A stretch of 64,000 bases of DNA from Candidatus Gottesmanbacteria bacterium RIFCSPLOWO2_01_FULL_43_11b (GTDB lineage: Bacteria > Patescibacteriota > Microgenomatia > UBA10105 > UBA927), in the NCBI GenBank assembly GCA_001780985.1, contig MFJV01000001.1, forward strand, positions 913,609 to 977,608. Reading direction: 5' to 3'. The notes beneath the pieces were generated by a model, which worked only from the letters and a program-made list of their open reading frames with translations, searched no databases and was not told where the DNA came from. The position numbers were made by a program, and so were the translations under genes. Below, piece after piece: positions 1,520 through 50,659 of this stretch; positions within the stretch are counted from its first letter, which is position 1, and each line of letters begins with the position of its first letter.

Positions 1520-1520
1520 T

Positions 1521-20930: not shown

Positions 20931-20999
20931 TTTTTATCACTTCGCAGATGGAATTGCTTTGCACAATGGTCTCCAAAGACTTCGACCTCTAATCCCGAC

Positions 21000-21050
21000 G
21001 TGGCGTACCTGCCTGCCGGCAGGCAGGTCTGTTCCACATCGGATGTGGAA
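21000..21050. repeat. composite palindromic repeat: GTGGCGTACCTG + 20-nt palindrome CCTGCCTGCCGGCAGGCAGG + TTCCACATCGGATGTGGAA
   Basis: The outer parts match 25607-25637 contiguously; the inner 20-nt palindrome matches 50899-50918. Confidence 0.8.
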
Positions 21051-22454: not shown

Positions 22455-22859
22455 ATGAAGTTATTCCTTGGGGAATACGACCATAGCTTGGATGATCGGG
22501 GCCGCGTAACGCTCCCAAGAAAAATTAGGGCAGAGATAGAAGAACGGGAACTGATACTTGCCAAAGGATTTGATCCGTGCATATTTGGCTTTGACAAAAC
22601 AAGTTGGGAGAAGGAAGCGGCAAAGCACCTTGAAAGTCCGGTAACCGACGAGGGAGGAAGAAAGTTACGACGGTATCTTTTTTCCTCGGCCGAGAAAGTT
22701 GAAATTGATAAGCTTGGTCGTATTCTACTGCCTGCCCAGCTCAAGGAATACGCTTCGATAGGAAAAGATGTTGTTGTGATCGGTGCCGGAGACCATTTTG
22801 AAATATGGGATAAGGCCCGTTGGGAGGAATATGAAGCCGCACATACCGGTACTTCTTAA
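22455..22859 (+). CDS. mraZ: transcriptional regulator MraZ
   Basis: Duplicated MraZ fold signatures (HSLDDRGRVTLP and KLGRILLP). Confidence 0.85.
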   Translation: MKLFLGEYDHSLDDRGRVTLPRKIRAEIEERELILAKGFDPCIFGFDKTSWEKEAAKHLESPVTDEGGRKLRRYLFSSAEKVEIDKLGRILLPAQLKEYASIGKDVVVIGAGDHFEIWDKARWEEYEAAHTGTS

Positions 22860-23628
22860 CCAGGTTATAGCAGGCCTCCAGGTAGCAGCTGGAAAGCGCT
22901 ATATAGATGCGACCTTTGGGGGCGGAGGGCATGCAAGGGAAATAGAAAGACGAGGAGGAAAGGTTTTAGGAATAGATACGGATCCAGATACCGATGCGGT
23001 ACACGGAAATTTTAGAGACATTAAAAAAATTGCGCAAGAGAATGGATTTAGTAAGGTGAGCGGGATTTTGTTTGATTTGGGAGTATCGAGTCACCAGCTT
23101 GATACACCAGAGAGAGGATTCAGTTATCGGTTTACCAACGCTCCTTTGGATTTACGCATGGATCAATCGAAAGGAGAAACGGCTGCCCAGCTGATAAACC
23201 GGTTACCTGAGAGTGAACTGTATGACATTTTTGTTCGATATGCTGAAGAGGAGTTGGCTCGGCCAATTGCTCACGCTATTTATCGCGCCCGTGCCGTAAA
23301 ACCAATTGAAACAACAGGAGACTTGGTAAAAATTATTGGAAACAGACCGGGAGTGTTATCAAGAATATTTCAGGCGTTACGGATTGCAGTCAATGACGAG
23401 TTCGGAGCATTAAAAGAAGGATTAGCCGGAGCGGAAGAATTGTTAGAACAGGAAGGAAGACTTGTTGTTCTTACGTTTCATTCGCTTGAGGATAGGATTG
23501 TAAAAAAGTTTTTGGAAAGAAGCGGATTTAGACGCATTACCAAAAAACCAATCGTTGCGACACAAGAGGAAAAAGAGCTCAATCCGAGAGCTCGAAGCGC
23601 AAAACTTCGGATAGGTGAAAAACTATGA
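22831..23628 (+). CDS. rsmH: 16S rRNA (cytosine1402-N4)-methyltransferase
   Basis: HIPVLLNQV...DATFGGGGHA SAM-binding motif; overlaps the mraZ end. Confidence 0.85.
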   Translation: MKPHIPVLLNQVIAGLQVAAGKRYIDATFGGGGHAREIERRGGKVLGIDTDPDTDAVHGNFRDIKKIAQENGFSKVSGILFDLGVSSHQLDTPERGFSYRFTNAPLDLRMDQSKGETAAQLINRLPESELYDIFVRYAEEELARPIAHAIYRARAVKPIETTGDLVKIIGNRPGVLSRIFQALRIAVNDEFGALKEGLAGAEELLEQEGRLVVLTFHSLEDRIVKKFLERSGFRRITKKPIVATQEEKELNPRARSAKLRIGEKL

Positions 23629-23903
23629 TTCGATTTCTTCCAATAGTAGCAATTGTTTTCCTGATTATTGAAGTTATTTTTATTAATCAGCTCGCCGGAA
23701 TGGGTGAGAAGGTATCAGCATATGACGTTGCGATTGATAAACTTCAGGAAGAAAATGCTCTCCTTGAGCAGGCAGTTGCTTCAGCCTCATCGCTCCTTTT
23801 AATTGAACAGAAAGCCAAAGAATACGGGTTTACTGAAAGTCATCCCACATCCTACATTCATCTTGACGACGAGCTGCCTCTTGCACTCAAGGAAAGCCAG
23901 TAG
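23625..23903 (+). CDS. ftsL: FtsL/DivIC-like cell-division protein
   Basis: Single TM then a coiled-coil; sits in the canonical position between rsmH and ftsI. Confidence 0.55.
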   Translation: MIRFLPIVAIVFLIIEVIFINQLAGMGEKVSAYDVAIDKLQEENALLEQAVASASSLLLIEQKAKEYGFTESHPTSYIHLDDELPLALKESQ

Positions 23904-23915
23904 TACGGTTAAGAA

Positions 23916-25595
23916 ATGCGAATGTGGCGCATTTGGTTTATCTTCTGGATATTCGGAATAGGGTTTTCTCTTGTCGGATTACGCCTGTTTTACTGGTCAA
24001 TTCTTGCCGGTGAAAGCTTACGGCAGGAAGCATCGAGCCAATACCTCATTGAATTTCAGCTTCCCTCCTCCCGTGGATCAATTTCCGATCAAAAAAATAA
24101 CAACTTGGCTTTGAGTCAGCCTGCCTTTCTGGTATACGCCCAACCAAAACTCATAAAAGACATAAGAAATTTTGCCTCAAAAGTTGCAGGCATTCTTTTC
24201 ATTGATGAAGAAAGTGTAGTTGCTGATCTCAATGTCGAGAATCGATTCTGGGTACCTCTAGCTCATAAAATTGAGCAACCGGTTGTCGAAAAACTGAAAG
24301 AGTTAAACCTTGAGGGGCTTGGATTTGAAAAAGAAGCGAAACGGTACTATCCGGAAGCCTCCATGGCAGCACAGCTATTGGGATTTGTGGGTCTGGATGA
24401 GCAGGGGAATGATACAGGGTATTTTGGTTTGGAAGGATTCTATGAGCGGGAACTCCGCGGAAAACCGGGCGCTCTCCAACGGGAAAAAGATGCCAAAGGA
24501 AACCCGATTTTAATAGGTGAAGCACTTCGGGTTGAACCTGAACACGGGAGATCCCTCGTTTTATGGATGGATAGATCCATTCAGCGCATGGTGGAAAAGA
24601 GACTTCTTGAGGGAATTGAAAAATACGGAGCAAAAGAAGGATCAGTCGTGATTATGGATCCAAAAACCGGAGGAATAGTTGCTATGGCATCAACACCAAG
24701 CTATGACCCGATTTCCTATAACACTTACCCAAGTGAACTTTTCAAAAATCCCGTTGTTTCAGGAAGTTACGAGCCGGGAAGTACGTTTAAAGTATTGATT
24801 ATGAGTGCAGCACTTGAAGAAAAACTTGTAACGCCAACGACAACGATGGAGGAAGGCGGACCGACACGCGTCGGCGAATATCTTATTAAAACCTGGAATG
24901 AGCAGTATAGCGGCACAATTTCTATGACAAAGGTTTTAGAGAAATCCAGCAACGTCGGTATGGTTTTTGTAGGACAGAAACTGGGAACTGAGAAAATGTT
25001 GGGATTTCTCAAGCGCTTTGGCATTGGAGAGGTCACGGGAATCGACTTGGAGGAAGAAATTTCACCCGAACTTCGGCAAGAGAAAGAGTGGAGGGATATT
25101 GATCTCGCCACAGCCTCTTTCGGCCAGGGAATAGCAGTCACACCCATTCAGATGCTTCGTGCTGTAGGGGCTTTGGCAAATGACGGATGGCTTATGGAAC
25201 CCCACGTGGTCAAAGAAATTGTTGACACCAAGGGAAAATCAGTTGAAATAAAGCCAAAGAAAGTCCGTCAGGTGATCTCCGCAGCAACAGCCAGAATCAT
25301 TTCTGAAATGATGATTGCAGCAGTTGATAACGGGGAGGCAAAGTGGGCAAAGCCAAAGGGGTATAGGATAGCAGGGAAAACAGGAACAGCGCAGATTCCA
25401 GTCGCCGGCCACTACGATGATAAGAAAACAATTGCATCATTTGTCGGATTTGCACCGGCAGATGACCCGAAATTCGTCATGCTCGTTACCCTTCGTGAGC
25501 CACAGAGCTCTCCCTGGGGTTCAGAAACAGCAGCGCCACTGTTTTTTACCCTTGCAAGAGATATATTCACCTACTGGGGCATTTCACCGCAGTAG
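23916..25595 (+). CDS. ftsI: peptidoglycan D,D-transpeptidase (class B PBP)
   Basis: N-terminal TM anchor; STFK, SSN and KTGT active-site motifs. Confidence 0.85.
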   Translation: MRMWRIWFIFWIFGIGFSLVGLRLFYWSILAGESLRQEASSQYLIEFQLPSSRGSISDQKNNNLALSQPAFLVYAQPKLIKDIRNFASKVAGILFIDEESVVADLNVENRFWVPLAHKIEQPVVEKLKELNLEGLGFEKEAKRYYPEASMAAQLLGFVGLDEQGNDTGYFGLEGFYERELRGKPGALQREKDAKGNPILIGEALRVEPEHGRSLVLWMDRSIQRMVEKRLLEGIEKYGAKEGSVVIMDPKTGGIVAMASTPSYDPISYNTYPSELFKNPVVSGSYEPGSTFKVLIMSAALEEKLVTPTTTMEEGGPTRVGEYLIKTWNEQYSGTISMTKVLEKSSNVGMVFVGQKLGTEKMLGFLKRFGIGEVTGIDLEEEISPELRQEKEWRDIDLATASFGQGIAVTPIQMLRAVGALANDGWLMEPHVVKEIVDTKGKSVEIKPKKVRQVISAATARIISEMMIAAVDNGEAKWAKPKGYRIAGKTGTAQIPVAGHYDDKKTIASFVGFAPADDPKFVMLVTLREPQSSPWGSETAAPLFFTLARDIFTYWGISPQ

Positions 25596-25600
25596 AATTT

Positions 25601-25637
25601 CCCGATGTGGCATACCTGTTCCACATCGGATGTGGAA
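25601..25637. repeat. repeat copy CCCGATGTGGCATACCTG-TTCCACATCGGATGTGGAA, without the inner palindrome
   Basis: Near-identical to the 21000 copy minus the 20-nt insert; contains two mutually exclusive 9-bp stems. Confidence 0.8.
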
Positions 25638-25643
25638 TTTATT
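25619..25643 (+). terminator. candidate intrinsic terminator hairpin (TTCCACATC-G-GATGTGGAA followed by TTTATT)
   Basis: 9-bp inverted repeat plus a T-rich tract 24 nt after the ftsI stop; an alternative upstream pairing (25602-25629) is also possible. Confidence 0.4.
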
Positions 25644-26022
25644 AACGACTTTCCTTTACTTTTACCTCAAAACAGGATGATTTATTTAGAGTTATGATCG
25701 TATCGTGAGAAGTTATTTTTTCCACGAAATCACCACTAGCAATACCTTCAGTATTAACCCCACTACAGACACTTGGTGCTAACTGACAACGCAAACAGGT
25801 ATTAAAAGCTTCAGCGGCTCTTAACCTTTTCGCGCTAACCCTGAAAAAAGAGCTATCATCAAGTTTGTGAAAGGAAGCTCCACTGAATTCATTTAACTTG
25901 TGCGATCGTATTATTAGTTTTTCTATAATCATAAACTCTCCAAGCAAATATAGTGAGGAAGTATAGTAGGAGAGAGAGGAATTGTCAAGCCTATAGTGTT
26001 TTTTGGTTAAATTGGGGCTTAT

Positions 26023-26031
26023 TGGTATAAT
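26023..26031 (+). promoter_or_regulatory. extended -10 promoter element TGgTATAAT upstream of murE
   Basis: The TGN-TATAAT element ends 7 nt before the murE ATG at 26038, which implies a leaderless or very short-leader transcript. Confidence 0.4.
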
Positions 26032-26037
26032 AAACAC

Positions 26038-27195
26038 ATGCTCAGAAGCCTCAAGGGGCTATATCACCTTCTCGTTGCTGTACTTGCCAATATTTGGTTC
26101 GGTTTCCCCAGCCGCAGGCTTACCGTCATAGGTATAACAGGTACGGATGGCAAAACTACGACAACCACACTTATCTACGAAATTCTCAAAGCAGCAGGAT
26201 ACAAAGCCTCAATGATCACATCAGTTCATGCAGTGATTGCCGGAAAAAAGTATGATACAGGCTTCCATGTGACTACTCCGAATGCCTTTTGGGTTCAAAA
26301 ATACCTCCGGGAGGCAGTAAATGGTGGAGATACGCACATGGTTCTTGAAGTAACCTCACACGGACTGTCTCAATTCAGGGTCTTTGGAGTCAAATTTGCC
26401 GTTGGAGTCATTACAAACGTGACCCACGAGCACCTGGATTGGCACGGGACATTTGAACAGTACCTAAAAACTAAACTCTCTCTTCTTAAACGTGCAAAAA
26501 TTGCTGTCATTAATCGGGACGAACTCTCTTATCGCCCAAGGAATAAATACATAACATACGGCATTGTTCGTGAGGCGAGCGTAACGCCCAAAACATATCC
26601 TTTCAAAACAAAACTACTCGGTGATTTCAACCGATACAACATTCTTGCTGCCCTTGCCGCAACGTGTGAAGCATTAAGGGTAGATAAGGAGGTCGCGCTT
26701 AGAAGTATGCGAACCTTCCATGGTGTACCTGGGAGGATGGAGGTTGTGGCAACAAAACCATTTCGAGTAATTGTTGACTTTGCCCATACCCCCCATGCCA
26801 TTGACGTAGCACTCAAAGCGACAAAAAAGTTTACAAAAGGGAGAATAATCCATGTTTTTGGGTCAGCCGGTGCAAGAGACAGAACGAAACGCCCGATTAT
26901 GGGAGAAATGTCGGGAAAATATGCAAAAGTCATAGTTTTGACTGAAGAAGATTACCGGAAAGAGAACGTAAATGACATAATGGATGAAATTACAAAAGGA
27001 ATTTCACCAAATATTGACGTACATCGCTATCCAAACCGTCAGGACGCTATAAATTTTGCCATTTCAATCGCAAAACCAGGAGATACAGTGATAGTCACCG
27101 GCAAAGCGCATGAAAAAAGCCTTTGCCGCGGGACAAAAGAATACCCGTGGAGTGAACATGAGGCAATAAAAAAGGCGCTTAAAAAATATACATAA
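26038..27195 (+). CDS. murE: UDP-MurNAc-L-Ala-D-Glu:diamino acid ligase, lacking the usual N-terminal domain
   Basis: GITGTDGKTTT P-loop, DFAHTP motif and GSAGARDRTKRP C-terminal motif; only 385 aa. Confidence 0.75.
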   Translation: MLRSLKGLYHLLVAVLANIWFGFPSRRLTVIGITGTDGKTTTTTLIYEILKAAGYKASMITSVHAVIAGKKYDTGFHVTTPNAFWVQKYLREAVNGGDTHMVLEVTSHGLSQFRVFGVKFAVGVITNVTHEHLDWHGTFEQYLKTKLSLLKRAKIAVINRDELSYRPRNKYITYGIVREASVTPKTYPFKTKLLGDFNRYNILAALAATCEALRVDKEVALRSMRTFHGVPGRMEVVATKPFRVIVDFAHTPHAIDVALKATKKFTKGRIIHVFGSAGARDRTKRPIMGEMSGKYAKVIVLTEEDYRKENVNDIMDEITKGISPNIDVHRYPNRQDAINFAISIAKPGDTVIVTGKAHEKSLCRGTKEYPWSEHEAIKKALKKYT

Positions 27196-27196
27196 T

Positions 27197-27931
27197 ATGT
27201 TCAAGGAAACAATACCAGGAGTATTTCAATCGGAACTACTTTCTCAGCAAAAAATTCTACACGGATTCTCGAATCGTTTAATCGGGGACATGCGAATGGT
27301 TGAACCACGACACAAGCTCAAGGAACTACTTGGTCTTTCATCATACAGGTTAGTTGCAGCTGAGCAGGTGCATGGGGATTCCGTCCACACGGTAACGGAA
27401 AATGATCTGGGTAAGACTGTTTCTGGTGTAGACGGATTGGTTTATAGCAGAGAAAAAGTGAATGCAAATGTGGCTTTGGGAATTATCGCTGCCGACTGCG
27501 TACCACTGCTTCTTGTTGACACCCGAGCTAAGGTTATCGGAGCAGCCCACGCGGGATGGAAGGGGACACTTAGTAGAATAACGACGAATACCATAGATGA
27601 AATGAAAAAACTTGGTGCGAACGCGTCAGACATAGTTGCATCCATCGGTCCACATATCGGAATGTGCCATTACAATGTACCGACGGAGCGCGCGAGAAGA
27701 TTTCAAGAAGCGTTTAATTATGATCAAAAAGCAGTTACTTTTTTTGATAACAGGTGGCATGTTGATATCGGTTGGGCAAATTACCTGCAACTAATTGCAG
27801 CTGGTATTCCTCCGGAGCACATCGATGCTCCGCCAACATGTACGGCATGCCAAATAGACAATTTCTTTTCCTTTAGAAGGGATACTGCGGAAACCTACGG
27901 AGAAATTATGGGAGTAATAGGATTTATATGA
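27197..27931 (+). CDS. pgeF: peptidoglycan editing factor / purine nucleoside phosphorylase (YfiH/DUF152 family)
   Basis: Conserved HG...AADC...GAAHAGWKG...C-H motifs of the YfiH (Cu-oxidase_4) family. Confidence 0.75.
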   Translation: MFKETIPGVFQSELLSQQKILHGFSNRLIGDMRMVEPRHKLKELLGLSSYRLVAAEQVHGDSVHTVTENDLGKTVSGVDGLVYSREKVNANVALGIIAADCVPLLLVDTRAKVIGAAHAGWKGTLSRITTNTIDEMKKLGANASDIVASIGPHIGMCHYNVPTERARRFQEAFNYDQKAVTFFDNRWHVDIGWANYLQLIAAGIPPEHIDAPPTCTACQIDNFFSFRRDTAETYGEIMGVIGFI

Positions 27932-29292
27932 AACATATTTACTTTGTCGGAATAAAGGGAGTTGGGATGGCAGCTTTGGCCATTTACTGCAAAGAAGCCG
28001 GGATGAAAGTATCCGGATGCGATACAGCCGAAGAATTTCCTACAGATGATGAACTCAAAAAGGCAAATATTCCGGTTGATTTTGGATTTGATCCACAGTT
28101 ATTGAAAAAAGCAGATTTGGTTATTTACACAGGCGCTCATGAAGGCCGTGATAATCCGGTTGTTGTAAAAGCGAGGGAGCGCGGAATAGAAACGCTCCCT
28201 CATGGTAAGGCTTTGGGGATGTTTATGGAGGGTAGTCGTCAGATTACTGTTGCAGGAAGCCATGGAAAAACAACAACTGCTGCTATGATTGCTACAATAT
28301 TAAAATCCGCAGGGAAAGATCCGTCCTATGCAATCGGAGCCGGAGCAATCGGAGAGAGTGCTGCCGGTCATTTTGGAAAAGCAAATATATTTATCGCAGA
28401 AGGGGACGAATATGTTACTGATCATGGACACGACGAAACACCGCGTTTTTTATGGCAAAAACCCGAACTTCTTGTTGTGACCAATATTGATTTTGATCAT
28501 CCTGATGTGTATGCAAATATACGTAATGTGCAAGACGCTTTTGTCAGTCTTCAAGAAAAAAGTTCAACAACAATTATCAACAGAGACGACCATAATAGCC
28601 GAATATTACGCGAAGGAATTTCTTTTGGATTTTCACCACAAGCTGATTTTCGGATTACCCATAGCGGTGTGGGACGGGAACGTATGTTTTTTACCCTTGA
28701 ACAAAAAGGCGTGAAGCTTGGAGAATTTGCACTGAAAGTTCCCGGAGCACATAACGTTTCAAATGCAACAGCAGCTGTTGTTACATGCCAGGCATTGGGG
28801 ATATCGATTGATAAAATTCACAAAGGACTTCTGGATTTTTCCGGAACAAAACGACGATTTGAAAAAACAGGCGAGGCAAATGGAGTGATCTATTACGATG
28901 ATTATGCCCACCATCCAGCAGAAATTAAAGCGACACTGAAAGCAGCGCGGGAGTGGTATCCTGAGAAAAAAATTATTGCCGTTTTTCAGCCGCATACCTA
29001 TTCCCGAACCAAAGCATTACTTCCTGATTTTGCGCGAAGTTTCCAAGATGCTACGATGGTAATACTCACCGATATTTATGCATCAGCACGTGAATCTTAC
29101 TCTCATGGAATAACGGGGAAAACTCTCGTAGAAGAAACACTCAAACATCATGGGTCTGTCCGATACGGAAAAGATTTTTTTGAAGTAGAAAAAATACTCG
29201 AGCGTGAATCAGGAGACATAGTCATTTTCATGGGTGCAGGAGATATATACACATGGGCAAAAAAACTATGGATGAAAAACTCAAAAAGTTAA
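27928..29292 (+). CDS. murC: UDP-N-acetylmuramate--L-alanine ligase
   Basis: MurC-type N-terminal Rossmann domain (VGIKGVGMAALA); GSHGKTTT P-loop. Confidence 0.8.
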   Translation: MKHIYFVGIKGVGMAALAIYCKEAGMKVSGCDTAEEFPTDDELKKANIPVDFGFDPQLLKKADLVIYTGAHEGRDNPVVVKARERGIETLPHGKALGMFMEGSRQITVAGSHGKTTTAAMIATILKSAGKDPSYAIGAGAIGESAAGHFGKANIFIAEGDEYVTDHGHDETPRFLWQKPELLVVTNIDFDHPDVYANIRNVQDAFVSLQEKSSTTIINRDDHNSRILREGISFGFSPQADFRITHSGVGRERMFFTLEQKGVKLGEFALKVPGAHNVSNATAAVVTCQALGISIDKIHKGLLDFSGTKRRFEKTGEANGVIYYDDYAHHPAEIKATLKAAREWYPEKKIIAVFQPHTYSRTKALLPDFARSFQDATMVILTDIYASARESYSHGITGKTLVEETLKHHGSVRYGKDFFEVEKILERESGDIVIFMGAGDIYTWAKKLWMKNSKS

Positions 29293-30248
29293 AAAACATT
29301 TTAGGAGAAAAAGCGAAAGAAAACGAACCGCTCGGACGATACACGACGTTAAAAATCGGTGGTCCTGCGGATCTGTTTTTTGATGCAAAAACAATAGATG
29401 AGCTTACGGAAGCAATTACGTCAGCACGAAAATTAGGAATTCCATATTTCATGCTCGGCGGAGGCACGAATATTCTCATAGGCGATCGGGGAATCCGCGG
29501 ACTTGTCATTAAAAATTCGACAGATAGAATCGCAATCGCCGGAGCAAAAGGCAAATTTGAGGGTGGAGAAAACAAAAGTACTGTGTATGTGGAGGCTGAT
29601 AGCGGTGTCATTATGAATAAATTAGTACGTTTCACAATTGAAGAAGGGCTTGGGGGACTTGAAATGCAATTAGGACTTCCCGGAACTGTCGGAGGAGCAA
29701 TGTATATGAATTCAAAATGGACACAACCGGAAGGTTACGTGGGAGACGCTGTATACCAGGCGACGATTCTCAACGGAAAGAATGAGGTGAAAGTTGTTCC
29801 TCGTTCATATTTTCAGTTTGGATACGACAAAAGCATCCTTCAGGAAATTCCGGATGTAGTTTTGAGAGTCGTGTTTATTCTCAAACGCGAGCCAAAGGAA
29901 AAACTATGGGAAGTTGCCAATTCTGTCATGGCATATAGGAGAGGTACACAGCCACAGGGAGTAAAAAGCCCGGGATGTACATTTCGAAACATATCAAAGT
30001 CCGAAGCCATGTCGGTCCCGACTCCTAACCACACAACATCAGCAGGATTTCTCATTGATCACGCGGGACTCAAAGGAACCAGAGTCGGTGATGCTCAAAT
30101 TTCACCGGTTCATGCCAATTTTATTGTAAACCTTGGGAGCTCATCTGCTTCTGACGTGGTAAAATTAATAGAGATTATCAGGGCAAAAGTGAAACAACAA
30201 TTCGGAGTCACGCTCAAAGAAGAAATAGTCCGAGTAGGAGAATTTTAG
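29253..30248 (+). CDS. murB: UDP-N-acetylenolpyruvoylglucosamine reductase
   Basis: FAD-binding LGRYTTLKIGGPADLF...GGGTNIL motif; alternative start at 29268. Confidence 0.8.
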   Translation: MGKKTMDEKLKKLKNILGEKAKENEPLGRYTTLKIGGPADLFFDAKTIDELTEAITSARKLGIPYFMLGGGTNILIGDRGIRGLVIKNSTDRIAIAGAKGKFEGGENKSTVYVEADSGVIMNKLVRFTIEEGLGGLEMQLGLPGTVGGAMYMNSKWTQPEGYVGDAVYQATILNGKNEVKVVPRSYFQFGYDKSILQEIPDVVLRVVFILKREPKEKLWEVANSVMAYRRGTQPQGVKSPGCTFRNISKSEAMSVPTPNHTTSAGFLIDHAGLKGTRVGDAQISPVHANFIVNLGSSSASDVVKLIEIIRAKVKQQFGVTLKEEIVRVGEF

Positions 30249-30291
30249 ATACCTTTAAAGGTCGGACCTTTAAAGAGTAAGGAGACGTTTA

Positions 30292-30696
30292 ATGAAAAAA
30301 TATAAAATTAATGCTTCTGATTTTGCCAAACGACTAGGTGCGTACTCTCACGGGTATAAAGTTGAGGTAGGAGATGCAGAAATAATATTTACCACTGGGC
30401 AAATTGCTCTTGATAAGAAGGGAGAAGTTCTCTATCCAGACGATCCTGTCAAACAAACAGAATTTATTTTTGAATCACTCCAAAAAATTCTTCATCAATC
30501 GGGTGCAAGCCTCGATGATGTAGTAAAAACTACAATATTTTTAACTAATATTCGTGATTTCCCGAAAATATCACCGGTTAGGAATAAATATTTCAAAAAT
30601 TCTGAGCCTGTCTCTACGTTAGTTGAGGTGAATAAATTGGTAAAAGAAGGGTGTAAAGTAGAAATTGAAGTGATTGCTATAAAACAAAAAGAGTAA
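30292..30696 (+). CDS. ridA: RidA/YjgF family reactive-intermediate deaminase
   Basis: YjgF/chorismate-mutase-like fold signature (KTTIFL...); about 130 aa. Confidence 0.7.
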   Translation: MKKYKINASDFAKRLGAYSHGYKVEVGDAEIIFTTGQIALDKKGEVLYPDDPVKQTEFIFESLQKILHQSGASLDDVVKTTIFLTNIRDFPKISPVRNKYFKNSEPVSTLVEVNKLVKEGCKVEIEVIAIKQKE

Positions 30697-30699
30697 CCT

Positions 30700-37093: not shown

Positions 37094-37104
37094 TACCTAT
37101 ATAT

Positions 37105-37443
37105 ATGTTTGTGATAATCGCAAACTGGTTTATTAGTGCAATAGCCCTCTATATCGTTTCAAGACTTATTTCCGGCATTACACTTTCTGATTTTGGAAGT
37201 GCATTGGTTGCTGTTGTTATCATCGGTCTTGTCAATGCACTGATAAAACCATTATTTCTTCTCTTGACTCTCCCAATTAATATTTTGAGTCTTGGGCTTT
37301 TTACATTCGTCATTAACGCCGCAATGCTCATGCTTGCAGGAAATCTCACACCCGGCTTTCAAGTGAACGGATTCGGCACTGCACTTGTTGGCTCAATACT
37401 TCTCTCTGTTATCACAATGCTTCTCCATTCTTTGGTGAAATAG
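37105..37443 (+). CDS. 4-TM holin-like family protein (PF04020-like)
   Basis: 112 aa with four predicted TM helices; glycine-rich loops. Confidence 0.5.
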   Translation: MFVIIANWFISAIALYIVSRLISGITLSDFGSALVAVVIIGLVNALIKPLFLLLTLPINILSLGLFTFVINAAMLMLAGNLTPGFQVNGFGTALVGSILLSVITMLLHSLVK

Positions 37444-37444
37444 T

Positions 37445-38365
37445 ATGACACCTCAAATATGGGAACAATTCCTCATAAAATATAGCCCCAGCGCTCTTTT
37501 TCAATCGTGGAAGTGGGGAGAAGTTGAGAAAAAACTGGGAAACAAAATTTGGAGATTAGAGTGGGAGGACGATGCAATTGCACTGGTTGTTAAAGTAACC
37601 GCGCGGCGCGGAACGTTTTTACATATACGCCACGGACCAGTGGTTTCTGATAAGAGATATTTCAAAAAAATTCTTTCAGACTTAATAGAACTTGCAAAGA
37701 AGGAACACGCATGGTTTGTGCGAATTAGCCCTCAAGTACAGTCACTTCCTGATTTGGGATTAGTATCTGCTCCGATTCATGCCATGGACGCGGAACTTTG
37801 CTGGGTTTTGGATTTGGACAAAAGCGAAGAGGATCTTCTTAGTAACATGCGTAAAACCACTCGCTATGAAATTAAACATGCTCAAGAAGTAACTGTTGAA
37901 AAAACCAAGAAATTAGAACGGTTTTTTCATCTCTACGATGCGACGAGTACGCGGCATAAATTTGTACAGCATACGGGGATTCGTGAAGAATTTGAAACAC
38001 TTGATGCAGAACTTTTTGTAGCATCACATCAAGGGACTGATTTAGCAGCAGCTATCATCGTTTATTATGGTGATCAGGCAATCTACCGCCACGGCGCCTC
38101 TCTTCCATCAAAAGTTCCTGCTTCATATACAACCCAATGGGAGGCAATCCGTGAAGCTAAATATAGAGGTAAAAAATTGTACAATTTTTGGGGTATAGCG
38201 CCTGAGGATAAACTAAATCATCCATGGAGAGGAATAACACTGTTCAAAAAGGGCTTTGGAGGGAGGGAAATTAAGTATATCCACGCTCAAGACTTGCCTA
38301 TTTCACCACTCTATACGATTACACGATCGGTTGAGACAATGAGGAGGATTGTCAAAGGGTATTAA
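37445..38365 (+). CDS. FemAB-family peptidoglycan aminoacyltransferase
   Basis: FLQSWKWGEVK N-terminal signature of the FemABX (GNAT-like) family; about 306 aa. Confidence 0.65.
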   Translation: MTPQIWEQFLIKYSPSALFQSWKWGEVEKKLGNKIWRLEWEDDAIALVVKVTARRGTFLHIRHGPVVSDKRYFKKILSDLIELAKKEHAWFVRISPQVQSLPDLGLVSAPIHAMDAELCWVLDLDKSEEDLLSNMRKTTRYEIKHAQEVTVEKTKKLERFFHLYDATSTRHKFVQHTGIREEFETLDAELFVASHQGTDLAAAIIVYYGDQAIYRHGASLPSKVPASYTTQWEAIREAKYRGKKLYNFWGIAPEDKLNHPWRGITLFKKGFGGREIKYIHAQDLPISPLYTITRSVETMRRIVKGY

Positions 38366-38385
38366 GAATGTAGTACAATCGTTTT

Positions 38386-38754
38386 ATGCGGGAGATACTG
38401 CGTAAACATCACATATCCTTCAAAAACGCATTTGCCGGGATCTTTTGGAGTCTGCGGACACAACCAAATTTCCGTGTGCATATTTTCCTCTCTACCCTTG
38501 CCTTGATTCTCGCCTGGTATTTACGTATTTCTCGATTAGAAACACTCGTAATTATTTTTACGATAATTCTTGGTTTAACCGCTGAGATGATTAATACCTC
38601 ACTTGAATCCATGACTGATTTAATTACCAAAGAATGGAAATCTGAAGCCAAGGTTGCTAAAGACGTCTCAGCAGGTATGATGCTCACAGTAGCAATAGGA
38701 GCCGTGATTATTGCGGCGTTTATTTATGTACCCTACTTATGGAAATTCTTTTAG
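38386..38754 (+). CDS. dgkA: diacylglycerol / undecaprenol kinase
   Basis: Three TM helices plus the DgkA signature (FRVHIF...GLTAEMINTSLE). Confidence 0.7.
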   Translation: MREILRKHHISFKNAFAGIFWSLRTQPNFRVHIFLSTLALILAWYLRISRLETLVIIFTIILGLTAEMINTSLESMTDLITKEWKSEAKVAKDVSAGMMLTVAIGAVIIAAFIYVPYLWKFF

Positions 38755-39785
38755 GTCTGCTTTTGTTTTCGTGGCTGATATCCAGCATTCTCTATATTCC
38801 TTTCATTAAGCTTCTCTATAAATGGAGGTTTCAACGTCTCCGCCAGACAACGCGTGACGCATTTAATAAACGAACTCCCATTTTTGACCGCTTCCATGCA
38901 AAAAAAGCAGGAACACCGGTCGGTGGAGGACTCCTTATAATTCTCGTGGCAACCGTGCTTTTTCCTCTCGTACTTATTTTGATGCGCTATTTCTGGATTC
39001 CTATTTCATCAGTCTACCCGCTTTCAAGCGAGATTAAAATATTACTCTTTACGTTCGTTTCATTCGGCGTACTGGGACTTCTCGATGATATTAAAAAGAC
39101 GTTTCTTTGGGTAAAGCCGAAGTTTTTTGGGCTACGTCTTCGGCATAAATTATTTCTTGAAATAGTTCTTGCCGCAATTGTTTCGTTTTGGATGATGTTC
39201 GAGCTTAAAATTAGTATCTTCTATATTCCCGGATTTGGTGTCATTGAGCTCGGGTGGTGGTATATACCATTTGCCGTATTTGTCATTATTGCATTTGCCA
39301 ATGCATTCAATATTACCGATGGTTTAGATGGGCTCGCTTCCGGGGTACTCATGGTTGCCCTCATGGCGTTTTGGTTTTTATCAGCCTCAATTCTCGATAC
39401 ACCGCTTTCCGTTTTTATCGCATTGTGGCTCGGCGCCCTTCTTTCTTTCCTCTACTTCAATATCCACCCTGCAAGGATTTTTTTAGGTGATGTGGGCGCT
39501 TTATCCTTTGGGGCAACGTTTGCCGTTGTTGGGCTTATTTTAGGGAAAGCGCCGGCACTTGTTGTCATCGGAGCTATTTTTGTCGTTGAGGCTGCCTCTT
39601 CCCTCCTTCAGCTTACGTCAAGATCAGTGTTAAATAAAAAAATATTTGCCGTTGCGCCGTTTCACCTCTGGCTCCAATTGAAGGGATGGGAAGAATCAAA
39701 AATAGTCATGCGCTTCTGGATTATTGCAATTGTGTTGGCAATTTTTGGTTTATGGCTAGCATTACTCATAAAACCCACCGTCTAA
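38739..39785 (+). CDS. mraY: phospho-N-acetylmuramoyl-pentapeptide transferase
   Basis: NAFNITDGLDGLASG motif. Confidence 0.85.
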   Translation: MEILLGLLLFSWLISSILYIPFIKLLYKWRFQRLRQTTRDAFNKRTPIFDRFHAKKAGTPVGGGLLIILVATVLFPLVLILMRYFWIPISSVYPLSSEIKILLFTFVSFGVLGLLDDIKKTFLWVKPKFFGLRLRHKLFLEIVLAAIVSFWMMFELKISIFYIPGFGVIELGWWYIPFAVFVIIAFANAFNITDGLDGLASGVLMVALMAFWFLSASILDTPLSVFIALWLGALLSFLYFNIHPARIFLGDVGALSFGATFAVVGLILGKAPALVVIGAIFVVEAASSLLQLTSRSVLNKKIFAVAPFHLWLQLKGWEESKIVMRFWIIAIVLAIFGLWLALLIKPTV

Positions 39786-40843
39786 CCCCCCCTGATTACT
39801 GGTTAACGGTCGTGACCATTATCCTGAGTATTTTCGGCCTCATCATGGTCTATGATTCCTCTGTTGCTATTGCACTTCGGGATTTTTCAGACCAATATCA
39901 CTTTGTCCGTGAGCAGATTCGATGGTTTTTTGTCGGAAGTATTGCCCTTATAATTGGTTCGTTTTTTGACTATCACCGCCTGTATAAGCTCGCAGTTCCT
40001 TTACTTCTTGTAACGCTTTTTCTTCTCCTTCTCGTATTTATTCCTAGTATAGGGATTGCCGCATTAGGAGCTCATCGTTGGATTAATTTTGGTTTCTTTG
40101 TTTTTCAGCCGGCGGAACTTGCCAAACTTAGCCTTATTATTTATCTGGCAGCATGGTTTTCATATCCTGAAAAAGGAAGAATCTTGCCATTTCTCTTTTT
40201 ACTGGGTTTAGTTATTGGATTAGTTGTTGCTGAGCCGGATTTAGGAACGGCGTTTATTATTTTAATGATCGCGCTCACCATGTATTTTTTTTCAGGCGCA
40301 TCTTTATGGCAATTTGCACTGCTTATTCCGGCCTTAGCTACATCTGTCGGTGCACTTGCGGTATTTTCTCCGTATCGACTCAGGCGTATTACTACATTTT
40401 TTAATTCAGATATAGACCCTCTGGGGGCTTCATATCAAATCCGTCAAGTACTTCTTGCTTTAGGATCCGGCGGATTATGGGGTCTGGGTCTTGGGAAATC
40501 ACGCCAGAAGTACGAATACCTTCCTGAGGCCAATACGGATTCAATTTTTGCAATTATTGGAGAAGAGATAGGGTTTATCGGTGCAGCAGCAGTCATTTTC
40601 CTTTTTTTATTCCTCGTATGGCGGGGATTCCGTATCGCAAGACGCGCCCCGGATACGTTTGGGAAGCTCCTTGCTCTCGGAATTTCTTCCTGGATTGGCC
40701 TCCAGGCGCTTGTAAACCTCGGGGCGATGGTTGCACTCATTCCCTTAACAGGCGTCCCATTGCCGCTTATTTCATACGGCGGATCAAGTTTGATTCTTAT
40801 GCTTTTTGGTATTGGTATACTTTTAAATATAAGTAGGCAATGA
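39752..40843 (+). CDS. ftsW: SEDS-family peptidoglycan glycosyltransferase / lipid II flippase FtsW
   Basis: 10-TM SEDS signature; position between mraY and murG; start taken at ATG 39752. Confidence 0.75.
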   Translation: MASITHKTHRLTPPDYWLTVVTIILSIFGLIMVYDSSVAIALRDFSDQYHFVREQIRWFFVGSIALIIGSFFDYHRLYKLAVPLLLVTLFLLLLVFIPSIGIAALGAHRWINFGFFVFQPAELAKLSLIIYLAAWFSYPEKGRILPFLFLLGLVIGLVVAEPDLGTAFIILMIALTMYFFSGASLWQFALLIPALATSVGALAVFSPYRLRRITTFFNSDIDPLGASYQIRQVLLALGSGGLWGLGLGKSRQKYEYLPEANTDSIFAIIGEEIGFIGAAAVIFLFLFLVWRGFRIARRAPDTFGKLLALGISSWIGLQALVNLGAMVALIPLTGVPLPLISYGGSSLILMLFGIGILLNISRQ

Positions 40844-41889
40844 AAATACTTATTACCGGCGGCCATATTACCCCAGCGCTTGCTGTTGCGGAAGAAATAA
40901 GGGAGCGATACCCGGACTGGGAATTAGTGCTCGTGGGGCGCCGGTTTTCTCTGGAAGCGAATAAAATTCAATCAGAAGAGGAGCGGTTAGCAAAAAAATA
41001 CAACCTTGAATTTATCCCATTTAAAACAGGAAGATTCACCCGTGCATTTGCCCTCACAACACTTATCTCTTTATCTAATGTACCCGTCGGATTTATTAGC
41101 GCAATCAACATTGTTTCCTCAGTCCGCCCGAACCTCATTATTTCTTTTGGTGGTTACATAGCGCTTCCCGTCGTTATTGCCGGAAAACTCATGGGAATTC
41201 CGACTGTCACACATGAGCAGACGCGTAAACGCGGACTTTCGAACAGAATTATTGGTCTTTTTGCCCGTAAAGTTTGCGTGAGCTACCCTGATCAAAAAGG
41301 AGTCTATACAGGATTACCCATACGAAGAAGTATTTTTGAAAAATCGAAACCACCTGCAGGAGTTGATTCCAAGCGCCCGTTATTGTTTTTTTCCGGCGGT
41401 AGCACCGGATCGCAATCATTGAACACAATTTTTTTTGAATGTATTACTCTGCTAACCAAGCGATACATGGTCGTCCACCAAACGGGGAGAGCGTCAGAAT
41501 CAAAACAAATGGAGAACTACCAATCGTTTCCATACATAGATTTACCCGAGTATGCATGGATTTTACAAAATGCAAAACTCATTATCGGAAGAAGCGGAGC
41601 AAACACAGCAGGAGAAGTAGCGGCTCTTGGGAAAGTTGCACTCTGGATTCCGCTTCCGTGGTCAGGTGCGAATGAACAATACGAAAACGCTGCATTTCTT
41701 GTAAATAAAGGAACAAGCGAGCTCATACAACAAAAAAATCTTACCCAAGCCACTCTCATAAGTATGATTGAAAAAATGGTGAGTAATTATGAATCCTACA
41801 AAAACAATGCGGAAAAATACTCACGGGAGATTTCCCGGAACGCCGCCGGAAAGCTTGTTGACGAAATAGTAAAACTCCCGGAAGTATGA
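40840..41889 (+). CDS. murG: UDP-GlcNAc:lipid I GlcNAc transferase
   Basis: MKILITGGHITPALAV N-terminus (GT28); position in the dcw cluster. Confidence 0.8.
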   Translation: MKILITGGHITPALAVAEEIRERYPDWELVLVGRRFSLEANKIQSEEERLAKKYNLEFIPFKTGRFTRAFALTTLISLSNVPVGFISAINIVSSVRPNLIISFGGYIALPVVIAGKLMGIPTVTHEQTRKRGLSNRIIGLFARKVCVSYPDQKGVYTGLPIRRSIFEKSKPPAGVDSKRPLLFFSGGSTGSQSLNTIFFECITLLTKRYMVVHQTGRASESKQMENYQSFPYIDLPEYAWILQNAKLIIGRSGANTAGEVAALGKVALWIPLPWSGANEQYENAAFLVNKGTSELIQQKNLTQATLISMIEKMVSNYESYKNNAEKYSREISRNAAGKLVDEIVKLPEV

Positions 41890-42545
41890 AATTCATAAGA
41901 AGGAAAAAAATCGGACGTATTATTTTTGCCATTCTCATTGTCATAGGAATCACCATCGGATTGTGGATTGCAGTCCGGGATCTTTTTCAAATTACTCATG
42001 TAGAAGTTATCGGAGCTCAGATTGACGTACGAATTGACCAGGAAAAGATGAACAAGAATCTTCTTTTTTTCCCCACACAAAAAATACGGACGCAACTTTT
42101 AAGTCAGAATCCTCTTGTTGAAAATATAGAAATTCAAAAAAAATTTCCTCATACAATACGGATTATCGTAACCTCACGAATGCCTATTGCCCGTGTTGCA
42201 CTTTCGGATCGCACAGTTTTGGTCGATCGAGAGGGTGTTGTCATTGGACTTTCCGGTGACGCTGATAATTTTCCTTTACTTTCTCTTAACAATGATGAAT
42301 CTCTCCTTATTGAAAGCCTTGAAATAGTAGCAGGTATGGAACAAGGAGAATTACTTTCGATAACAAAGATTGATAACGCGACCTTACTTGCTAAATCGAC
42401 AACAACAGATATATATTTTCCTCAAAGTGATCAGATTCAAAATAAAGTGGCTACTTTACAAAGCATCTTGAGCGGGTTTAGAATAAAAGGAACTCTGCCC
42501 AAAGTAATAGATCTCCGGTTTGAAAAACCAATAGTAACCTTTTAA
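41886..42545 (+). CDS. ftsQ: cell-division protein FtsQ/DivIB (POTRA domain)
   Basis: N-terminal TM then a POTRA-like domain; canonical position upstream of ftsA. Confidence 0.65.
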   Translation: MKFIRRKKIGRIIFAILIVIGITIGLWIAVRDLFQITHVEVIGAQIDVRIDQEKMNKNLLFFPTQKIRTQLLSQNPLVENIEIQKKFPHTIRIIVTSRMPIARVALSDRTVLVDREGVVIGLSGDADNFPLLSLNNDESLLIESLEIVAGMEQGELLSITKIDNATLLAKSTTTDIYFPQSDQIQNKVATLQSILSGFRIKGTLPKVIDLRFEKPIVTF

Positions 42546-42549
42546 GTAT

Positions 42550-43848
42550 ATGGCGCGAACGAGCACAATAACCGGTATAGATGTAGGAACATCAAAAATA
42601 ACTACGCTCGTTTCTTCTATAGGCGAAGAAGGTGAAGCCCGTGTCATTGGAGTATCCACAGCAGTAAGCCGCGGCCTTCGGAAAGGCCAGGTTGTTAATA
42701 TTGAGGAAGCAACAGCTGCAATATCTTCATCTCTGGAAGGGACTGAACGGATGGCAGGGTCATCCATAGGCCGGGCATATGTTTGTGTAGGTGGAGCACA
42801 TATAGCATCGATTAATTCACACGGAGTAGTTGCGGTAGCAGAACCTGAACGGGAAATTACGGAGTTTGATATAAAAAGAGTCATCGATGCGGCAAAAGCA
42901 GTCTCCCTTCCATCTTCCCGTGAAATTCTCCATGTGTTGCCGCGAGGATATGTAGTCGATGGTCAGGAGGGAATTGTTGACCCAATTGGCATGACAGGGA
43001 TTCGGCTTGAGGTCGATACCCACATTGTGACAGGAGGGGCAACGGCGATACGAAACTTACGTAAATGCGTTGAAGAACTGGGAGTTGAAGTTTCAGGGAT
43101 GGTATTTAGCGGACTGGCATCAGCTGCAGCAAGTTTGTCAGATACGGAAAAGGAGCTGGGTGTAATTTTAATTGATATTGGAGGCGGCACGACCGACGTT
43201 GCAATATTTGTTGAAGGAGCACTTTCCTACTCGTCAGTTATTCCGATAGGTGCCATAAATATCACAAAAGATTTAGCAGCGGGGCTTCGCGTGTCGCTCG
43301 AAAGCGCTGAAAAAATAAAGTTGGCATTGGGGGAGGCGCCAAAATTGCCGGCAATCCTTGAAGAAGAAAGTGTAAAAGGGGGAAAATCGGATAAGACCGA
43401 TGAAATTGATCTTACCAAACTGGGACTACCTGAAGAACTCAAAACTGTCTCGAAGAAGACGTTGGTCGAAGGGATAATTAAACCACGACTTAATGAAATA
43501 TTCACAATGGTTGGCCTTGAGATAAAACGGAGTGGATTTGGCGGAATGACGCCATCGGGAATTGTATTAACAGGCGGAGGAGCCCAAACAGTCGGAGCGG
43601 TTGAGGCTGCACGAAGAAATCTGGCCATGCCGGTTCATGTCGGCATACCACAACATATTACAGGGCTTATTGATGAAATCATGAATCCTGCATATACTGC
43701 TTCTGTCGGGTTAATTCTCGGAAGTACGAAGACCGGTATGGGAGAAAGCTCATCAGGACTTTCAGGTTTTCGGAAAGTCGGAGAACGAATTCAAATAAAA
43801 GGAATGGCCGGAAAAGTCATTGATTTTGTGAAATCATTCTTGCCCTAA
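42550..43848 (+). CDS. ftsA: cell-division protein FtsA
   Basis: Actin-fold [11 protein letters not shown] phosphate-1 motif. Confidence 0.85.
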
Positions 43849-43882
43849 TGTACTAATTTTTCTGCCCCAAGATTTACTTTTT

Positions 43883-44998
43883 ATGCTCATAAAGCCCGAA
43901 ATTGCCCGCTTTGCAAAAATTAAAGTCGTTGGAATTGGTGGTGGTGGCTGTAATGCGGTTACTTCGATGATCAGTATAAGCCAAATTAATGGTGTTGATT
44001 TTATCGGCATTAATACAGACGCCCAAGCTCTCCTCATGTGTCAGGCTGCAACGAAGATTCAAATCGGAGAAAATTTAACGCGGGGCTTAGGAGCAGGGGG
44101 TGACCCGGAAATCGGAATAAAGGCAGCTGAAGAGTCTAAGGAAAAAATAAAAGAATACCTTCGCGATAGCGACATGGTGTTTCTTACCTGTGGCGAGGGA
44201 GGAGGAACAGGAACCGGTGCAACACCACTCATTGCTGAAATTGCAAAAGAGCTTGGCGCTTTGACAGTTGCTGTTGTTACAAAACCATTCCAATTTGAGG
44301 GCACGCGAAGGATGATAAATGCAGAAGAGGGAATTACAAACCTCAAAGATAAAGTGGATACCCTCATTGTCATTCCGAATCAACGACTCCTAGAGGTAAT
44401 TGATAAAAAAATGACCCTTCTTGAGGCATTTAGAGTTACAGACTCAGTATTATCTCAGGGTGTACAGGGTATTTCTGACCTTATTACCATGCCGGGGCTT
44501 ATTAACGTCGACTTTGCAGACGTACGAACCATTATGACGAGTGCAGGATCTGCACTTATGGGAATTGGAACCGGGGTCGGAGAAAATAGAGCCGCAACAG
44601 CAGCCAGGACTGCAATTGCCTCGCCGCTTCTTGAAATGTCGATTGAAGGGGCTAAGGGAGTGCTTTTCAATATTACCGGAGGCCCGGATCTCACCATGTC
44701 AGAAGTTGATGAGGCAGCCAAACAAATTGCTGCTGCAGTTGACCCGGATGCAAATATTATTTTTGGCGCGACCATTGACGAACATCTTGTTGATCAGGTA
44801 AAAATTTCAGTGATCGCAACAGGATTTGATGAAACGAGAAGGAGATTAAGGGAGCTTTCATCGCGGCCATCCCCCGTAGGCCAAGTTCCACCCCCACTAA
44901 CAACGACACAACAGCCTCCGGTAACACAACTCACGGATGATCTTCCTCCCGAAGAGGACGAATTCGACATCCCCGCATTCCTCCGTCAAAGAAGCTAG
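43883..44998 (+). CDS. ftsZ: cell-division GTPase FtsZ
   Basis: [10 protein letters not shown] and GGGTGTG tubulin-signature motifs. Confidence 0.9.
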
Positions 44999-45010
44999 CC
45001 ACGAATCCCT

Positions 45011-49208: not shown

Positions 49209-49224
49209 TACAATTAGCCTTGCT

Positions 49225-50657: not shown

Positions 50658-50659
50658 CT

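Follow-up and report, generated by a model that had tools for sequence, protein, structure and literature searches.

The cluster of division and cell-wall genes (dcw) of Escherichia coli runs in the order mraZ-rsmH-ftsL-ftsI-murE-murF-mraY-murD-ftsW-murG-murC-ddlB-ftsQ-ftsA-ftsZ. An ancestral 17-gene form of the cluster that includes murA and murB has been proposed, and the members most frequently encountered outside it are ddl, murB, and murC (PMC8871954), while genomes of the candidate phyla radiation (CPR) are reported to keep most dcw genes (bioRxiv 10.1101/2025.03.10.642329). Here we describe the expanded dcw cluster of a CPR bacterium, Candidatus Gottesmanbacteria bacterium RIFCSPLOWO2_01_FULL_43_11b, found at positions 22455–44998 of a 64,000-nucleotide stretch of contig MFJV01000001.1 (positions 913,609–977,608, assembly GCA_001780985.1; the whole stretch is hereafter designated the window). 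In bacteria, few pathways are as conserved or as much targeted by drugs as the synthesis of peptidoglycan precursors, and the walls of CPR bacteria have hardly been studied experimentally.

Open reading frame (ORF) listing combined with Pfam and NCBIfam scans reproduced, at the same coordinates and in the same order, all 24 genes that a first-pass annotation of the sequence had listed, every one of them on the plus strand. Collinearity with the E. coli cluster (locus L001 of our collection) is seen both at the 5' end (mraZ-rsmH-ftsL-ftsI-murE) and at the 3' end (mraY ... ftsW-murG-ftsQ-ftsA-ftsZ); the mraZ-rsmH-ftsL-ftsI and ftsQ-ftsA-ftsZ ends characteristic of a dcw cluster stand on one strand, and murA and murB lie within the cluster as in the 17-gene form. 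In contrast to the canonical cluster, however, murD is missing from between mraY and ftsW, the ddl gene of the 17-gene form is missing altogether, and murC and murB are shifted up beside murE. Moreover, nine genes are interleaved (pgeF, ridA, a glmU-like gene, an alpha/beta hydrolase gene designated abH, a DegT-like gene, a metallo-beta-lactamase (MBL)-fold gene, a holin-like gene, a FemX-like gene, and dgkA), MurE lacks its domain 1, and MurF carries a membrane anchor. Most junctions within the cluster overlap or are shorter than 45 bp, the exception being a 442-bp gap between ftsI and murE. In the literature that we searched, no description was found of the nine interleaved genes, of a MurE without domain 1, of the three states of the murD slot described below, of a membrane-anchored MurF with a hydrolase partner, or of the dichotomy between Ddl and the DegT/FemX pair.

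For comparison, ~130 loci (designated L with a number) were gathered by a MurF-like scan of species-representative genomes, a DegT-like alignment scan of metagenomes, and single homologue look-ups; neighborhoods of up to 20–21 kb per locus were taken, phmmer comparison of six-frame ORFs served to score synteny, and homologue lists comprised the best 120 matches. The same expanded order was found on more than 30 independent contigs of the Gottesmanbacteria type from many samples (L004–L009, L051–L054, L057–L099, L135, and L136): ftsL-ftsI-murE-pgeF-murC-murB-murA-glmU-abH-murF-degT, then, with CvpA-CAP, MBL, and holin genes in some of the loci, femAB-dgkA-mraY and, after a slot of varying content, ftsW-murG-ftsQ-ftsA-ftsZ. 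Since it recurs on so many independent contigs, the arrangement is far beyond chance, and the region is a lineage-typical division/cell-wall super-operon of Candidatus Gottesmanbacteria and not a one-off rearrangement; the nearest MurF homologues also belong to Gottesmanbacteria or other Patescibacteria. The inserted genes recur in relatives and are therefore conserved parts of the cluster, with the linkage abH-murF-DegT-like(-MBL-holin)-FemAB-dgkA-mraY present in dozens of loci, so that the absence of linkage in relatives that the first-pass annotation had named as a refutation is not observed. dgkA stands directly 5' of mraY in every Gottesmanbacteria locus, the pgeF slot is kept, the MBL gene is found in many relatives, though not in all, and the holin-like gene of family PF04020 is also present in L051, L054, L135, and L136. 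A gene encoding a 322-residue protein, in which a CvpA (colicin V production) membrane domain is fused to a CAP/SCP domain, lies between the DegT-like gene and the MBL or FemX gene in many relatives (L006, 12533–13501; L009, 12850–13818; L051) and is absent from the window. As for ridA (30292..30696; PF01042), it occurs only in the cluster of the window, between murB and murA, and in no relative examined; its GC content of 0.336, against 0.423 for the cluster and 0.43–0.46 for its neighbors, suggests a recent insertion.

As the source is a metagenome-assembled scaffold, the missing genes might reflect an artefact of assembly or binning, or the decay of a pseudogenised cluster. However, identical proteins are recorded both for a 180-kb scaffold from the Rifle aquifer and for a Candidatus Gottesmanbacteria metagenome-assembled genome with locus tags A3A79_, the same organism shows these proteins and this gene order in several independent assemblies, the same junction lacking murD was found on 20 other contigs from different samples, and all ORFs of the cluster are intact with tight or overlapping junctions. 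Recurrence of the arrangement across assemblies excludes an assembly artefact, and the explanation as a whole has a negligible probability.

Our preferred explanation, to which we assign a probability of about 0.6, is that this lineage-typical super-operon serves a broadly standard peptidoglycan pathway, with MurD and Ddl encoded elsewhere, and also includes a branch-adding enzyme of the FemX-like kind and a MurF module that is conserved and membrane-proximal; the MurD and Ddl activities would be provided by genes elsewhere in the roughly 1-Mb genome. In the predicted pathway, the GlmU-like enzyme and then MurA and MurB would lead from UDP-GlcNAc to UDP-MurNAc, MurC would add L-Ala with PgeF acting as an editing factor, the addition of D-Glu is not encoded in the cluster, the domain-1-less MurE would add the diamino acid, and the membrane-anchored MurF would add the C-terminal dipeptide at the membrane. 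MraY would act next, with DgkA recycling the lipid carrier, followed by MurG, and FtsW and FtsI would polymerise and cross-link the product together with FtsL, FtsQ, FtsA, and FtsZ, MraZ and RsmH standing in front. The FemX-like enzyme would add a side-chain branch to the stem peptide, and an accessory role in the membrane-proximal MurF step may fall to the hydrolases, the small membrane protein, and the DegT-like enzyme. Nothing so far shows new cell-wall chemistry.

The absence of murD from its usual slot, and that of ddl from the cluster, had both been noted in the first-pass annotation and are borne out. mraY (38739..39785; PF00953; TIGR00445, 182 bits, slightly under the cut-off of 192) and ftsW (39686..40843; PF01098, 347 bits; starting at ~39752 in the public gene call) overlap, leaving no room for murD in the window. 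Searches were made in all six-frame ORFs of the window and its 10-kb scaffold flanks (~80 kb) with phmmer, from E. coli and CPR sequences of MurD and Ddl, and with hmmsearch, from a profile of each protein that was based on 120 homologues in CPR; for MurD they returned only the three already listed Mur ligases, and for Ddl they returned no match in any frame, so that neither gene lies just outside the window. The possibility that one of the three ligases is MurD or Mpl was ruled out by the NCBIfam scores, and a MurL-MurD2 pair is likewise absent from the window.

The MurD2/MurL route, consisting of an L-Glu ligase and an epimerase, is described for Xanthomonas oryzae and is placed by a 2021 review in Xanthomonadales, a few Alphaproteobacteria, and rare actinomycetes, with no mention of CPR (PMC8788868). 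In contrast to the window, which has neither gene, sister genomes carry this pair in the murD slot. Thus, between mraY and ftsW, seven relatives (L005, L006, L053, L054, L064, L135, and L136) have murL-murD2, with a MurL of ~450 residues (Pfam MurL_N/MurL_epimerase_C; PF26299/PF26298) beside a MurD2-type ligase; eight have a canonical-type murD (alone in five, with an extra ~0.8-kb gene in three); and the slot is empty in 20 loci besides the window, with spacings of −37 to +152 bp. L135 and L136 show the order of the window, including the MBL and holin genes, plus murL-murD2. Because sister genomes with otherwise identical order carry murL-murD2 or a canonical-type murD at this place, the empty slot is, judged by synteny, a clean lineage-specific deletion, and on a concatenated-protein tree the loci with empty slots fall in at least two clades. 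Over evolution, the D-Glu step is unstable at this one slot, where a canonical-type murD, a murL-murD2 pair, or no gene is found; the occurrence of murL-murD2 in CPR dcw clusters is a side-finding of this survey. Labels of Roizman-, Colwell-, and Sungbacteria are also borne by MurD2-like proteins with 52–58% identity. A tie between the presence of the MBL and holin genes and the loss of murD was considered and rejected, as L054, L135, and L136 combine MBL, holin, and murL-murD2.

MurE bears on how the loss of murD is to be interpreted. The murE-like gene (26038..27195) encodes a ligase of 385 residues (391–393 in relatives) that scores 381.9 bits with TIGR01085 against a cut-off of 257.3, the match beginning at model position ~88; the N-terminal UDP-binding domain 1 is lacking here and in the MurE of all Gottesmanbacteria relatives. 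Its closest solved relative, the Lys-adding MurE of Thermotoga maritima (4BUB), is aligned from chain residue 89. The motif TEEDYR replaces the DNPR of the diaminopimelate (DAP)-type enzymes (AEDPR in more distant CPR), so that neither the DAP motif DNPR nor the Lys motif D(D/N)P(N/A) is found and EDYR stands instead. The closeness to the Lys-adding Thermotoga enzyme would fit a branched, Lys-type wall and does not establish such a wall. Between murD-bearing and murD-less loci, MurE shares the TEEDYR motif and shows no consistent substitutions that set one group apart, which argues that its acceptor would still be the D-Glu-containing dipeptide precursor and that MurD activity is probably supplied from elsewhere. 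The missing murD is therefore weak evidence for the modified precursor pathway that the first-pass annotation had proposed; the loss from the slot is lineage-specific, and MurE does not change consistently with it. A murD located at another site has a precedent in at least one other CPR locus (L020), where it adjoins murC and does not stand in the mraY-ftsW slot. Since none of the four MurD2 homologues sampled for their context lay outside the slot, a relocated gene, if there is one, is more likely a canonical murD, which would fall outside our MurD2-centered search list.

Alternatively, MurD activity might truly be lost in the murD-less lineages, which would then salvage peptides or muropeptides from a host or make a stem peptide that lacks D-Glu. 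In favor of this, dependence on a host and reduced biosynthesis are generally ascribed to CPR bacteria, mraY adjoins ftsW directly in 20 loci besides the window, from at least two clades, and no relocated murL-murD2 was seen in the four independently sampled MurD2 contexts. Nevertheless, its scores (408 bits with TIGR01082, 197 bits with mpl) identify the MurC of the window as a genuine MurC, as opposed to the salvage ligase Mpl, MurE is not consistently altered between murD-bearing and murD-less genomes, and we know of no peptidoglycan that lacks D-Glu or D-iGln at position 2. As both types of MurD occur in the radiation and a canonical murD located elsewhere would escape the MurD2-centered search, we regard a true loss of MurD activity as very unlikely.

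As for ddl, Bacillus subtilis has a ddl-murF operon, representing the ddl-murF gene pair of the Firmicutes type. Likewise, murF is followed directly by ddl in 32 of the surveyed loci, namely those of other CPR phyla, of many small Clostridia metagenome-assembled genomes (MAGs), and of one MAG labelled Corallococcus, whereas in ~90 loci, comprising the window, all Gottesmanbacteria, and more distant CPR having the module outside the dcw context, murF is followed by the DegT-like gene. Of 91 loci, 78 have the latter immediately 3' of murF, and in relatives a median of 125 bp separates its end from the FemX-like gene. Thus, the usual place of ddl beside the membrane MurF is taken up by a pyridoxal 5'-phosphate (PLP) enzyme and a predicted tRNA-dependent transferase, the membrane-anchored MurF and the serine hydrolase being common to both types. 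On a MurF tree, the ddl-type and DegT-type membrane MurFs form sister clades, by which many independent switches between Ddl and DegT/FemX are ruled out; one ancient exchange would suffice to explain the mutual exclusivity, which is not itself proof that Ddl has been replaced.

A more radical explanation is that Ddl is truly absent from this clade and that the DegT-like PLP enzyme and the FemX-like transferase supply the substrate of MurF or complete the stem-peptide terminus without an ATP-grasp ligase, possibly through a transaminase-made amino acid that is aminoacylated from an aminoacyl-tRNA to give a dipeptide. A large CPR clade would then lack Ddl, and abH, the membrane MurF, and the DegT-like and FemX-like proteins would constitute a previously unrecognised membrane-proximal route for finishing the stem peptide. 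Such a Ddl-independent route is conceivable because FemX-like enzymes can aminoacylate free small-molecule amines, as does DhpH-C, a FemX-like enzyme that makes L-Leu-L-Ala(P) (PMC12945691). In the DNA surveyed, moreover, the modules abH-TM-murF-ddl (32 loci; TM, transmembrane segment) and abH-TM-murF-DegT-like-FemX-like (~90 loci) are mutually exclusive; the murF stop and the DegT-like gene overlap, with the FemX-like gene close behind, the module stays intact even outside dcw contexts (L013, L102, L113, L119, and L129), catalytic residues are conserved in all three proteins, and the DegT-type MurF differs from both the Ddl-type and the canonical MurF at conserved positions (L189Q, Y333F, D360P, and G391N in E. 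coli numbering). None of these MurF differences, however, falls at a known dipeptide-binding site, the DegT family consists of sugar aminotransferases and not of known amino-acid racemases or D-transaminases, and a single ancient rearrangement between two sister MurF clades explains the exclusivity without any change of function. Furthermore, tRNA-dependent transfer yields L- or Gly-residues, whereas FtsI (ftsI, 23916..25595; class B penicillin-binding transpeptidase with PBP_dimer and Transpeptidase domains) retains all three penicillin-binding motifs, STFK289 (SxxK), SSN344 (SxN), and KTG488, which argues for D-Ala-D-Ala-type donors. With a view limited to ≤20 kb per genome in addition, we consider a true replacement of Ddl unlikely.

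The preferred explanation, that MurD and Ddl are encoded elsewhere, has several observations standing against it. The ~80 kb of source scaffold that were searched yielded neither murD nor ddl; the MurD2 homologues checked for context (four of four) all sit in the mraY-ftsW slot; and the Ddl profile gave no match in the ~90 loci of the DegT type, each ≤21 kb. As the cluster has gathered even glmU, dgkA, and pgeF, the absence of ddl is conspicuous, and none of the best 120 matches of the Ddl search is labelled Gottesmanbacteria, the list being saturated by closer sequences, from Collierbacteria or Woesebacteria-like. If murD and ddl lie elsewhere, the locus is a tidy lineage-specific variant of the cluster with an ordinary pathway; if ddl is truly absent, there would be a new route to the stem-peptide terminus, with intrinsic insensitivity to Ddl-directed drugs. 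In a whole CPR class, nearly all of the pathway is gathered in a single cluster, in which MurE and MurF both lack the domain that normally grips the UDP moiety, and MurF is tethered at the membrane beside MraY and paired with a serine hydrolase.

The MurF-like ligase (34057..35451) scores 237.9 bits with the NCBIfam murF model TIGR01143, under the cut-off of 288.6, yet MurF is its best-scoring Mur ligase model. The match starts at residue 121, and MurF sequences in the PDB align only from residue ~127; in place of the soluble domain 1 of the three-domain MurF architecture, hydropathy indicates three N-terminal TM helices (~residues 2–29, 61–80, and 85–110). An AlphaFold model based on 66 homologues (predicted local distance difference test score (pLDDT), 93.8) contains long helices at 2–29, 61–80, and 85–128 and a short conserved amphipathic helix before a normal Mur ligase body, whose best fold matches are the MurF structures 4QF5, 4ZIY, and 4CVM (E 3e-26, TM-score 0.68–0.70). 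This body has the central ATP-binding and C-terminal folds of MurF, with the P-loop TGSYGKTS at residues 138–145. The N-terminal membrane region, in which a Y32/R36 motif is common to the family, is present in every fetched homologue apart from two canonical MurFs (L033 and L044) and a few ORFs that are truncated at contig ends or whose starts are ambiguous. Used alone as a query, the membrane domain retrieved only 26 cluster representatives, of which the full-length ones have ~480–535 residues and the rest, being shorter, are probably fragments. The domain is evidently too divergent for single-sequence searches, and the full-length matches carry it N-terminally on proteins of MurF size.

The serine hydrolase gene abH (33326..34060; Abhydrolase_1/6) encodes ~240 residues, with the triad Ser82-Asp195-His223 conserved in 82 homologues, and is the gene that immediately precedes murF in 81 of 118 loci, the two usually overlapping by 4 bp; most of the remainder are cut by contig ends. 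The triad of abH, membrane MurF, and Ddl is kept in CPR of the Saccharibacteria, Woesebacteria, and Nomurabacteria types (L012, L014–L032, L034–L043, L045, and L046) and occurs also in many small Clostridia/Christensenellaceae MAGs and in the one labelled Corallococcus. The taxon labels of several public MAG records are untrustworthy, since L004, L008, L014, L019, and L038 are titled 'uncultured Gammaproteobacteria' or 'Pseudomonadales' despite their CPR-type clusters.

Pfam confirmed that the DegT-like, FemAB, and DgkA genes of the first-pass annotation lie inside the cluster. The DegT-like gene (35436..36560) encodes a DegT/DnrJ/EryC1-family PLP enzyme (PF01041, 156.6 bits against a cut-off of 19.8) that resembles the sugar aminotransferases of this family, such as perosamine synthetase, QdtB, and ArnB, in its PLP domain of fold type I, in the lysine of SFxxxK, and in the aspartate of EDxAH; the PLP lysine K171 (SFGRDK171) and D149 are invariant in 91 homologues. 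Its profile matches sugar aminotransferases in the PDB with E as low as 1e-53, aligning in two blocks around a hydrophobic, family-specific insert of ~65 residues that lies between the large and small domains and is missing from the solved enzymes. The best NCBIfam equivalog reached 103 bits against a cut-off of 375, so that no equivalog is assigned, and a single-sequence structure model was uninformative (pLDDT 35.5). Unlike the genes of the known sugar aminotransferases, this one is linked to those for a Mur ligase and a FemX-like protein.

The FemX-like gene (37445..38365; PF02388, 109 bits against a cut-off of 24) encodes a putative aminoacyl-tRNA-dependent transferase of the FemABX family, with the double-GNAT architecture of Pfam FemAB matched in three stretches above the gathering score. 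Compared with FemX of Weissella viridescens, FemXAB, and MurM, it has a length similar to that of FemX, lacks the coiled-coil insert of FemA/B, and is coupled to the DegT-like gene; its similarity to the solved FemX and FemA is very low (E 1e-8 to 1e-3), and with the NCBIfam FemX equivalog it reaches 34 bits, the cut-off being 500. In all, 37 positions, including K268 and several Arg and Lys residues, are conserved in 64 homologues, the conserved Lys lying in a C-terminal FKKGFGG motif. The enzyme is thus plausibly active in adding a branch, and the interpeptide branch synthesis suggested in the first-pass annotation stands as a prediction from sequence.

The amino-sugar modification proposed alongside it is one possibility only. 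On that proposal, the DegT-like enzyme would aminate a sugar of the precursor or glycan, and the FemX-like enzyme would acylate the new amine or the Lys side chain in an otherwise standard peptidoglycan; as this concerns the role of the accessory genes alone, it is compatible with the preferred explanation. All significant PDB and Pfam relatives of the DegT-like enzyme are nucleotide-sugar or inosose aminotransferases and dehydratases, its PLP lysine and aspartate are conserved, and the two genes are tightly adjacent. However, neither the conserved module nor the cluster contains a dehydrogenase or dehydratase that would form the keto-sugar, and the hydrophobic insert in the C-terminal half suggests that the substrate may differ. 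We therefore regard sugar amination as a doubtful, if tenable, assignment.

The remaining genes of the cluster were assigned as follows. At the 5' end lie mraZ (22455..22859; PF02381, 115 bits), rsmH (mraW; 22783..23628; PF01795, 268 bits), whose start is probably near 22798 given a public gene call of 276 residues, and a gene for a small bitopic protein resembling FtsL/DivIC (23625..23903), which has one N-terminal TM helix, a coiled coil, no Pfam match, a conserved position, and a homologue in L052 that matches DivIC weakly. Downstream of murE are pgeF (27197..27931; YfiH/Cu-oxidase_4, peptidoglycan editing factor family; PF02578, 192 bits), murC (27928..29292; 408 bits with TIGR01082 over its full length, cut-off 335), murB (29253..30248; FAD_binding_4 and MurB_C), murA (30700..32040; PF00275, 276 bits), and a gene for a GlmU-like, archaeal-type bifunctional sugar-1-phosphate nucleotidylyltransferase/acetyltransferase (32037..33329; NTP_transferase and Hexapep domains; TIGR03992, 226 bits, under the cut-off of 292). 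Between the DegT-like and FemX-like genes are those for the small GloB-like MBL-fold hydrolase (36542..37093; PF00753) and the 'holin-like' membrane protein with four TM segments (37105..37443; PF04020, 113 bits), and the FemX-like gene is followed by that for the DgkA-family lipid kinase, resembling undecaprenol kinase (38386..38754; PF01219, 100 bits). The 3' end comprises murG (40840..41889; Glyco_transf_28 and Glyco_tran_28_C), ftsQ (41886..42545; POTRA_1 and FtsQ_DivIB_C), ftsA (42550..43848; FtsA and SHS2_FTSA), and ftsZ (43883..44998; Tubulin and FtsZ_C).

The gap between ftsI and murE (25596..26037) is particular to the window, the corresponding spacing being 17–42 bp in relatives (two loci with gene calls). 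It contains a hairpin, CCGATGTGG-N10-CCACATCGG, at 25602–25629, and a 22-nucleotide stretch at 25616–25637, covering the 3' part of the hairpin and the bases just past it, is repeated exactly at 21029–21050 inside a longer hairpin element (20996–21050). The strongest sigma-70-like site of the region, TTGACA-17-TATACT, lies in the gap on the minus strand (25988->25960) and faces a minus-strand ORF at 25642–26037, which has no Pfam match and no homologue in any fetched locus; another promoter-like pair, TTGTCA..TATAAT, stands just ahead of the murE ATG. The gap could thus hold a small repeated terminator or REP-like (repetitive extragenic palindromic) element and an orphan antisense gene. A decayed N-terminal domain of MurE or an RNA element was rejected, as there is no protein similarity and no Rfam match and as relatives without the gap also have a short MurE. 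With two essential steps missing and the cluster split by a gap with promoter-like and terminator-like signals, the statement of the first-pass annotation that the pathway is encoded within one operon was overstated.

Outside the cluster, the dcw region has directly upstream of it a large cluster for surface polysaccharides, covering positions 1–15700 of the window and 8 kb further upstream (L049); encoded there are numerous glycosyltransferases of the GT1/GT2/GT4 families, epimerases, and an initiating transferase (Bac_transf), as well as a 1000-residue Wzy_C protein and a 1111-residue GT-C (AftD-like) protein. Directly after ftsZ, at 45011–45319, is a cysteine-rich ORF of 102 residues (CxxxCxxxCC ... 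CC), which has no Pfam match and is also called as a gene in public contigs. Further downstream, rodA (48159–49208) overlaps the end of ileS, and the stretch at 49186–50940 has the genes for ribosomal proteins L21 and L27 split by a gene for a 372-residue methyltransferase of the UPF0020 family.

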